Source: Escherichia phage vB_Eco_AMO_3701M. Taken from it: 45,294 bases of DNA. The stretch lies in the sequence record PQ474795.1; one strand, 5' to 3'. The translations under genes and the position numbers were made by a program. The notes below the pieces were generated by a model, which worked only from the letters and a program-made list of their open reading frames with translations, was not told where the DNA came from and did no database searches. This document shows positions 6,343-6,592 of the stretch, in pieces; within the stretch, counting starts at the first letter, position 1, and each line of letters begins with the position of its first letter.

Positions 6343-6358
6343 AACTATTCGAATAGTT
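6343..6358. promoter_or_regulatory. perfect 16-bp palindrome AACTATTCGAATAGTT abutting a -35 hexamer
   Basis: Everted arrangement of the same half-site (CTATTC/GAATAG) used in the genome-wide dyad. Confidence 0.5.
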
Positions 6359-6385
6359 GACTTTTCACCAAAAATGTGCTAAGCT
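6357..6385 (+). promoter_or_regulatory. strong sigma70-like promoter TTGACT-N17-TAAGCT with TGn extended -10
   Basis: -35 at 6357-6362, -10 at 6380-6385 preceded by TGC; no ORF of any size follows for about 200 nt. Confidence 0.55.
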
Positions 6386-6391
6386 CCACCT

Positions 6392-6590
6392 GAGCTTGTG
6401 AAGTATGAACAAGCGACCGCGGCGTGGCAGGTAACGGAGCCGGACGTTAAGTCCGAGTGTAGTTACGCTGACGCGTTCGGAAGGGCCATACTCTATTGCT
6501 TGTGTAAAAAGTAACTGGGTTTACTGAGATTACGCCGTTTCTATGTTTAAATGATAAGGGCTAGCGCCCCGCTTTATGGCGGGGCTTTAC
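6392..6590 (+). ncRNA. putative non-coding transcript (promoter-to-terminator unit without ORF)
   Basis: Between promoter 6357-6385 and hairpin 6566-6586; only a weak 38-codon GTG frame with no SD; speculative. Confidence 0.2.
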
Positions 6591-6592
6591 TT
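6566..6592 (+). terminator. terminator-like hairpin
   Basis: stem gccccgc / gcggggc, loop tttatg, then TTTACTT (short U-tract). Confidence 0.4.

Follow-up and report, generated by a model that had tools for sequence, protein, structure and literature searches.

In the late operon of phage lambda, transcription enters at the promoter PR' and passes through the 6S RNA (194 nucleotides, nt) and the terminator tR' before it reaches the lysis genes S-R-Rz/Rz1 and the head genes, under antitermination by Q. Structured leaders that gate an mRNA or stabilise it are also known from the 5' untranslated region (UTR) of E. coli ompA, where a 5'-terminal hairpin is combined with a hairpin adjacent to the Shine-Dalgarno (SD) sequence, and from the leader of lambda N, which is itself a structured 5' UTR. 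In phage HK022, the put element is a cis-acting, folded RNA of approximately 70 nt, located close to its promoter and consisting of two stem-loops with a triplex (PMC9378689). Here, we have analysed a promoter-proximal, untranslated region that is located at positions 6386-6609 of a 45,294-nt stretch of DNA from Escherichia phage vB_Eco_AMO_3701M (PQ474795.1; "the window" is this whole stretch), directly upstream of the spanin genes (Rz/Rz1).

We consider, with moderate confidence, that the region 6386-6609 serves in cis as the structured 5' leader of the spanin transcript, which is probably also the transcript of the head genes. The region has a conserved promoter, no coding capacity, a conserved core fold, a conserved hairpin, and an RNA that is coupled to the SD region; the first 95 nt of the leader form a conserved stem-loop domain with the invariant sequences ACCGCG and CGGAAGG. 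The initial annotation had proposed either a phage small RNA (sRNA), which it put in its headline, or a long structured leader: the structured RNA stands, on the evidence of covariation, strand-specific folding and the absence of a conserved open reading frame (ORF), and the leader is the better fit of the two, with the sRNA keeping a low but real probability in this phage. As a phage cis-regulatory leader, the RNA belongs to no described family, and a full-text literature search has returned no paper that describes it.

The arrangement resembles that of lambda PR'-6S-tR', in that a host-type promoter is followed by approximately 200 nt of untranslated RNA, a terminator-like hairpin, and lysis genes ahead of the head genes (here, Rz/Rz1 only; the holin and the endolysin are located approximately 8 kb from the leader on the circular map); it differs in its conserved, covarying fold, which is not a known feature of 6S. 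With the ompA 5' UTR and the lambda N leader, the locus shares a long leader, a structure at the extreme 5' end, a hairpin at a fixed distance before a strong SD, and an AU-rich, single-stranded stretch between the two, but it has an additional 73-nt domain with invariant nucleotides and a covarying helix that closes the 5' end onto the 3' end. Ribosomal-protein leaders, the T4 gene 32 operator and riboswitches likewise combine covarying stems with invariant nucleotides in bulges, internal loops and flanks upstream of a gene; unlike these protein- or ligand-binding leaders, the phage leader matches no Rfam family and lacks the multi-stem junction that is typical of metabolite aptamers. Specifically, no match at the gathering score has been obtained from Rfam 15 (4227 families) in the window or in eight loci that cover all subtypes, and at E values of up to 10, the hits are sub-threshold noise that either falls elsewhere than in the core or scores far under the cut-off; ARAGORN likewise reports no tRNA or tmRNA, in agreement with the initial annotation, which had recognised none by eye.

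The window is matched to the public record OR061069.1 of Escherichia phage M01 (Guernseyvirinae, Kagunavirus-like) and is named M01 in what follows; within the leader region, the two differ at 6560, 6577 and 6604 only. The region from approximately 6253 or 6304 to 6609 is found by blastn, at an identity of at least 90%, in approximately 180 phage genomes, which comprise Kagunavirus of E. coli, Jerseyvirus of Salmonella and a small number from Raoultella and Klebsiella, and in the annotated records among the matches listed, a spanin is annotated at the match or adjoining it. Further loci have been fetched from IMG/VR through the scaffold protein (58 loci) and by an i-spanin alignment search (80 metagenome and 37 genome loci), and all fetched loci together have given 58 distinct leaders; a search of IMG/VR with the loose pattern ACCGCG-N40-70-TYCGGAAGG at the DNA level gave over 120 unrelated matches (loci L061-L180), which have been discarded.

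These leaders fall into class A (M01-like), class A' (loci L014 and L207; approximately 80% identical), the single form L011, class B (many Jersey-like phages), and classes C and D. In all of them, the spanin is preceded by a hairpin-rich stretch of 200-330 nt, and this includes the more distant forms, i.e. subtype D and the types represented by L055 and L057; subtypes C and D have the promoter layout and the SD-proximal hairpin as elsewhere, with different 5' modules.

Core stem-loop domain

The core (Table 1) is arranged in the order P2a, a bulged C, P2b, P3 (in which one G is bulged), a GGA/GUA internal loop, P4a, a bulged A, P4b and the terminal loop. P2 pairs positions 6417-6419 and 6421-6426 with 6472-6480, P3 pairs 6428-6435 with 6462-6470, and P4 pairs 6439-6445 with 6451-6458, where A6456 is bulged and the loop is GUUAA; between P3 and P4, GGA (6436-6438) faces GUA (6459-6461). 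The 5' foot, ACCGCG, and the 3' foot, CGGAAGG (6478-6484), are invariant across subtypes A and B, and subtype C retains both of them, side by side. In subtype A, P4 is capped by GUAA or GUUAA, and in subtype B by CGCA, CACA or CUCA. GGA sites of the CsrA type are conserved at CGGAAGG only. A reading by eye of the GRA/GUA internal loop as a K-turn or a sarcin-ricin/loop-E motif fits subtype B (GUA/GAA) but not subtype A (GGA), and no such claim is made.

The initial annotation had called for folding and covariance analysis against related phages, and this comparison supports a structured RNA. In a structural alignment, made by hand, of 19 distinct cores (A, A', L011 and B) that represent only approximately five independent lineages, 98.0% of the 441 cells are standard pairs, against 22-45% when the partners are slid by 1-3 columns; 10 of the 25 core pairs are altered on both sides, some of them with three or four pair types, and the covariation score is reached by no shuffle. 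The core fold is also the own minimum free energy (MFE) structure of each of five diverged variants (-29 to -33 kcal/mol), and the reverse strand is less stable and folds differently; several of the conserved pairs are G-U, which fixes the strand as +.

A covariance model (CM) that was built from subtype A cores alone recovers every subtype B copy, with E values of 1e-7 to 1e-8, and its match in the window extends over 6415-6487 (83.5 bits, E 5.7e-17). There is exactly one copy per genome, both in the window and in the complete genome of the relative Bas70, searched with filters off. The A/B core CM does not detect a core in subtypes C and D (the best score, 12.5 bits with an E value of 7.4, occurs at the expected spot in D leaders), and these two subtypes are treated as related in architecture only.

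The strand assignment bears directly on whether the locus is a DNA-level element, such as a replication origin, a packaging site or a protein-binding array, that mimics RNA structure. The stretch 6250-6356 is AT-rich and densely occupied by repeated operator-like motifs, which speaks for such an element, but the G-U pairs conserved on the + strand correspond to C-A mismatches on the other strand, which folds worse, the long-range helix described below spans 200 nt, and the extremes of the genome GC skew lie near 25 kb and 39 kb, not at the leader; we find this explanation barely credible.

The presence of a folded RNA of approximately 70-90 nt near the start of transcription, between a promoter and a terminator that precedes lysis and head genes, among which another terminator lies, also calls to mind processive antitermination of a put-, nut- or Q-like type. 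In this reading, the RNA would bind the transcribing polymerase itself, as put does in its factor-independent suppression of termination through the zinc-binding domain of the beta' subunit, or recruit a small phage protein, as nut does with lambda N, and the polymerase could then pass the hairpin at 6566, the terminator that follows the capsid gene (8964-8983) and later terminators. There is a likeness with put: both are promoter-proximal, folded cis RNAs of approximately 70 nt upstream of terminators in a phage operon (PMC9378689). That subtypes A and B share the core, with only A having a local terminator, would fit an action on distant terminators. The details are less favourable, and make antitermination very unlikely: unlike put, the leader is one long interrupted stem that follows a short, variable hairpin, and a search of the genome of HK022 with the core CM, filters off, yields nothing above noise (12.9 bits, E 1.3, within a tail gene). 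The sole + strand match of the leader to lambda boxA (YGCUCUUUA-like, with up to two mismatches) is inside the terminal hairpin, and the genome-wide count of such matches is at chance; unlike in lambda nut, the P4 loop is GNRA-like in subtype A only, and CNCA in subtype B. Compared with the lambda Q module, no Q is annotated here, there is no conserved pause-inducing -10-like element (the only early candidate, the weak TATGAA at 6404-6409, occurs in subtype A and is not conserved in subtype B), and the U-tract is missing in the sister subtypes. In the well-annotated relative Bas70, no RNA polymerase and no Q, N or other antiterminator is annotated, a statement about an annotation that includes many small hypothetical proteins; by eye, no conserved antiterminator pairing competes with the 6566 hairpin.

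Closing helix, terminal hairpin and coding capacity

The leader would be closed by a long-range helix, proposed by RNAalifold, between segment S1 near the 5' end and segment S3 before the SD. The S1:S3 helix has 8 pairs (99% paired), and between subtypes A and B, G-C is exchanged for U-A and A-U for C-G; in subtype C, the complementary sequences CUUCGU and ACGAGG are found by eye at the equivalent places. S3 lies 3' of the hairpin at 6566-6585, and the functional RNA thus extends into the translation-initiation region of the spanin.

S1 is predicted to be able to pair alternatively with its local complement S1', in a 5' hairpin, and the repetition of S1 as S2, together with S1', makes several mutually exclusive folds possible. 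The MFE structure of M01 and of the majority type-A sequence is "closed", with S1 paired to S3, and 6409-6416 paired to 6496-6503 around the core; among the alternatives that were drawn up on paper (S1:S1', S1':S2, S2:S3, and the 5' strand of P2b with ACGCCG at 6533-6538), the few informative variants (L014, L042 and L023) do not discriminate. S1' is missing from subtype B, which has its own repeat, GCUUUCAG, at the positions of S1 and S2. RNAalifold finds no consensus pairs in the linker at 6505-6565, where the GC content is 0.42-0.47, compared with 0.58-0.62 in the core. RNAalifold folds of the full MAFFT alignment have been set aside, being unstable outside the core and the hairpin and differing between subtypes.

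The initial annotation had also noticed a GC hairpin (6566-6586) just before the ribosome-binding site of Rz, which we find to consist of 8 pairs, 7 of them G-C, and a tetraloop at 6566-6585, followed by the SD. Across variants, pairing in the hairpin amounts to 99.6%, and two of its pairs are altered on both strands of the stem. Of the 32 terminator-like sites in 1-20000, it is ranked first, its T-tract is interrupted in a similar way to those of the operon-end terminators at 4165, 6095, 8964 and 13415, and ARNold predicts a terminator at the same position in phage fBC-Eco01. Its U-tract, however, differs between subtypes: the terminator rule accepts that of subtype A (TTTACTTATC) and rejects those of subtypes B (TTAGCGTATA) and C (TGTTACGAGG), whereas the distance of the hairpin to the SD is approximately 14-15 nt in all three. 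The loss of the U-tract in B and C, with the hairpin and its distance to the SD kept, points to a conserved role of the hairpin that is tied to translation initiation and not to termination. In this phage, the hairpin is probably a real, though leaky, terminator, and partial termination near 6590, giving an RNA of approximately 200 nt, is plausible.

Such a product brings back the sRNA of the initial annotation, i.e. a discrete, trans-acting RNA of approximately 200 nt that would run from the promoter at 6357-6385 to the hairpin as terminator and would act on targets or proteins of host or phage, with the spanin being expressed by read-through or from other promoters. The hairpin and its T-tract are the best terminator-like site in 20 kb, with ARNold in agreement in fBC-Eco01; the succession of a structured 5' domain, an AU-rich stretch and a terminator is a layout like that of enterobacterial sRNAs, and the sequence of the leader is more conserved than the neighbouring genes. 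Against this, subtype B has lost the U-tract, as has C, although B has the same core; the covarying helix uses 6595-6598, past the expected 3' end; and the element occurs only directly upstream of the spanin and once per genome, with no target or seed region identified. We therefore regard the sRNA as unlikely, and favour the leader, because the S1:S3 helix passes the hairpin and because the U-tract is lost in the sister subtypes with the hairpin-to-SD spacing kept. The core is, in addition, found directly upstream of the i-spanin at every locus that carries it, and the covarying S1:S3 helix abuts the SD.

As a cis-acting leader, the RNA would be made by the RNA polymerase of the host, which would start at the promoter at 6357-6385 and possibly at a motif at 6258 as well, and the transcript would probably run on into the scaffold and capsid genes. 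The leader would act in cis on how the genes that follow it are expressed: mRNA stability and the access of ribosomes may be set by the closing helix together with the SD-proximal hairpin, and the core stem-loop is a putative site at which a factor from the phage or its host would bind and tune expression. In M01-type phages, the hairpin might serve as a leaky terminator, so that some transcripts would stop near 6590 (approximately 200 nt) and the rest would enter the spanin genes.

Several points weigh against the leader as described. The 98.0% of paired cells in the core is inflated because the structure guided the manual alignment, and the covariation support for S1:S3 is rated as moderate because it amounts essentially to one split, A versus B; thermodynamic folding of subtype C gives the segment before the SD another partner. 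The predicted accessibility of the SD (partition function, with 36 nt of coding sequence included) is intermediate and depends on the variant, and with this inconsistency no clear on/off switch can be claimed. The start site, the 3' ends and the read-through are predictions from sequence, the factor that would bind the core is putative, and the sole RNA-seq study of Guernseyvirinae that was found, on the close relative vB_Eco_K1B4, does not report expression at the level of intergenic regions or leaders. Finally, it is not obvious why a leader for stability or translation should require a domain of 70 nt with invariant nucleotides, which leaves room for a role in antitermination or in trans. 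It is conceivable, if quite unlikely, that 6394-6487 is a new RNA "late switch" of virulent siphoviruses, which would render the host RNA polymerase resistant to terminators, either in the manner of put, without a protein, or via a small phage protein that has escaped recognition, or that the product of approximately 200 nt acts in trans; in either case, the spanin and head genes would come under its control, and with them the timing of lysis and assembly.

The claim of the initial annotation that the region has no ATG-initiated ORF is borne out, as the + strand of 6386-6609 holds none of at least 25 amino acids (aa). GenBank lists a GTG ORF of 38 aa (6398-6514) as encoding a hypothetical protein, and the possibility of a small protein gene, be it this ORF, another small ORF or a leader-peptide mini-ORF at 6496-6507, derives from such annotations, which several GenBank records carry here, and from the conservation of GGAAGGG and AUUGCUU in subtypes A and B. 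The 38-aa frame, however, is unbroken in only 3 of approximately 40 type-A variants: in 27 of the distinct variants it stops after 19 codons, in others after 16-17, and in one it extends to 55 aa through a frameshift indel. It has no SD and no counterpart in subtypes B and C, the annotated frame varies between GenBank records, and the substitutions are compensatory in stems, not synonymous. A comparison of the frames and lengths of the variants has thus found no conserved ORF, the presence of which, if translated, the initial annotation had named as speaking against its reading; the GenBank "hypothetical protein" at 6398-6514 is spurious, and a small protein gene is highly improbable. As for the mini-ORF, the invariant GGAAGGG is SD-like and is followed, 10 nt on, by UUG-CUU-GUG-UAA (UUG at 6496, UAA at 6507), a mini-ORF of three codons which overlaps S2; at this site, subtype B has UUG and six codons, and by eye the position of the stop is not preserved in L014.

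Table 1. Features of the spanin leader of the window and of its surroundings; all positions are those of the window.
Feature	Position	Strand	Sequence, composition or basis
Intrinsic terminator	6095-6115	+	AAGGCCCC-ATTAC-GGGGCCTT, then ATTTTTC; member of a repeated terminator family
Repeated promoter/operator motif copy	6258-6275	+	TGAATAGTACCCTATTAT; approximately 100 bp upstream of the promoter at 6357-6385
Operator-like array	6304-6356	+	TATTCC-GGT-TATTCC (6304-6318); GAATA-AAC-TATTC (6338-6350); palindrome CTATTCGAATAG (6345-6356)
Extended -10 sigma-70-type promoter	6357-6385	+	TTGACT (6357-6362), 17-nt spacer, TG (6377-6378), TAAGCT (6380-6385)
S1	6394-6404	+	GCUUGUGAAGU; MFE folds, covariation
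S1' (local complement of S1)	6409-6414	+	ACAAGC; MFE folds
Core stem-loop domain	6415-6487	+	73 nt, one long interrupted stem; covariation, folding, CM
S2	6498-6504	+	GCUUGUG; direct repeat of S1, predicted partner of S1', with S3 as alternative
AU-rich linker	6505-6565	+	block GAUUACGCCGU (6528-6538) common to subtypes A and B
GC-rich terminal hairpin	6566-6585	+	GCCCCGCU-UUAU-GGCGGGGC, tail UUUACUUAUC (DNA tail TTTACTTATC)
S3	6589-6598	+	ACUU-AU-CGAG; 3' strand of the closing helix with S1 (6401-6404, 6395-6398), directly before the SD
SD	6600-6605	+	AAGGAG; sequence and annotation of relatives
Start codon of i-spanin (Rz)	6610-6612	+	sequence and annotation of relatives

Promoter and upstream DNA motifs

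The promoter had been described in the initial annotation as strong and near-consensus, which is too generous, as its -10 hexamer agrees with TATAAT at 3 of 6 positions; its coordinates and its extended -10 are upheld. The pattern TTGACW-N14-TGnTAnnnT has a single match on both strands of the 45-kb window, where 0.03 are expected, and it is matched in 3 of 100 shuffles. A generic sigma-70 scan omits this promoter because of its weak -10 hexamer. TGnTAnnCT is found exactly once upstream of the spanin in 48 of the 51 distinct upstream regions, and these 48, which represent subtypes A, B and C, also keep the -35-like hexamer and the 17-nt spacing; the -10 takes the forms TAAGCT, TACGCT and TAACCT across the three subtypes, whose surroundings have diverged. 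We take the promoter as real because its geometry is conserved across these three diverged subtypes, and its spacing predicts a transcription start at approximately 6392-6393.

Upstream of the promoter, the TATTCC/GGAATA layout before the -35 is retained in subtypes A, B and C. The palindrome GAATA-N3-TATTC, in the form GGAATAAnnTATTC, has exact matches in the window at 6337-6350 and 7123-7136 only, located just 5' of the TTGACT of the spanin leader and of the TTGACA of the scaffold gene, respectively; it is kept in leader subtypes A, B and C, along with the two upstream TATTCC repeats. This arrangement suggests that the spanin-leader and scaffold units are under one common DNA-binding regulator. 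Downstream of the TTGACA at 7137, no convincing -10 has been found.

The motif at 6258 is one of nine copies of the palindromic sequence TGAATAGTnnnCTATTAT in the window (0.11 expected), which are oriented along the direction of the genes; copies are found at 4508, 6258 and 16026 on the + strand and at 32380, 35557, 35601, 39045 and 41173 on the - strand, and in the structural arm each + strand copy comes after a terminator. The motif is labelled a PHIRE "phage promoter" in the fBC-Eco01 paper (PMC9825357), and published annotation credits it to a "phage RNA polymerase", a gene that, according to their annotation, these phages do not encode. TGAATAGTnnnCTATTAT is probably the main regulated promoter/operator of the phage, and its copy at 6258 may provide a second start point from which the same leader is transcribed; some relatives (K1G type) do not have the motif at the equivalent position.

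The upstream border of the unit is the terminator at 6095-6115, where the operon before it, with head morphogenesis and Hoc-like genes, comes to an end. This terminator has near-identical counterparts, some of them bidirectional in part (AAGGCCCC-N4/5-GGGGCCTT, flanked by T-runs), and the members of this family occur at 4165-4184, 6095-6115, 13415-13434 and approximately 25925-25944, i.e. at the module boundaries of the genome.

Leader alleles and neighbouring genes

The identities of leaders and of the genes that follow them can be opposite. Between fBC-Eco01 (L002) and the Jersey-like L033, L041 and L042, the leader is 95-96% identical, with the i-spanin at 74-79% and the scaffold gene at 82-83%; between L014 and L002, the order is reversed, with 82% in the leader and 97% in the scaffold gene. 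These opposite identities indicate that leader alleles move as cassettes, which are near-constant within an allele.

The approximately 180 sequenced genomes with the leader now carry it mis-annotated as assorted "hypothetical proteins". Kagunavirus and Jerseyvirus are among the most often isolated candidates for phage therapy of E. coli and Salmonella, and their gene control is essentially unstudied; the leader, an RNA element with solid comparative support, stands ahead of the genes that carry out the final lysis step and of those for head assembly, and, if it controls read-through, mRNA stability or translation, it would offer a handle on lysis timing and burst size. The practical gains are corrected annotations and a CM with which to find the element, which would be a new RNA motif for Rfam.

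Type D leaders (loci L045, L049, L056, L212, L218, L221, L222, L226, L229, L231 and L233) occupy 200-330 nt before the spanin ATG and have a TATAAT promoter, a GNRA-capped stem-loop flanked by (G)UAGCG, further hairpins and the same SD-proximal hairpin, with apparent compensatory changes among variants.

Between 3600 and 9120, the window differs from OR061069.1 at 341 of 5521 positions, mostly third codon positions of annotated coding sequences, with nearly no substitutions in the non-coding stretches. In M01, frameshifts divide two genes, the i-spanin gene into 6610-6756 and 6642-7019 and that of the capsid into 7895-8347 and 8344-8946, whereas in relatives the i-spanin is whole (128 aa) and the capsid gene is also unbroken; the split genes suggest assembly errors in the deposited M01 genome.

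The scaffold gene also has its own conserved leader, approximately 45 nt before its ATG (7147-7181 in the window, and also in L003-L060). A first hairpin, AAUCCGGG-UGG-CCCGGAUU at 7147-7165, covaries at its base (ACACCGGG/CCCGGUGU, GAGCCGGG/CCCGGCUC and GACGGG/CCCGUC); a second, GUCC-AGG-GGAC at 7171-7181, has the SD in its loop, and its stem is GACC/GGUC in L054. By analogy, the two hairpins could be a translational operator, e.g. for autoregulation by the scaffold, as is known for P22.

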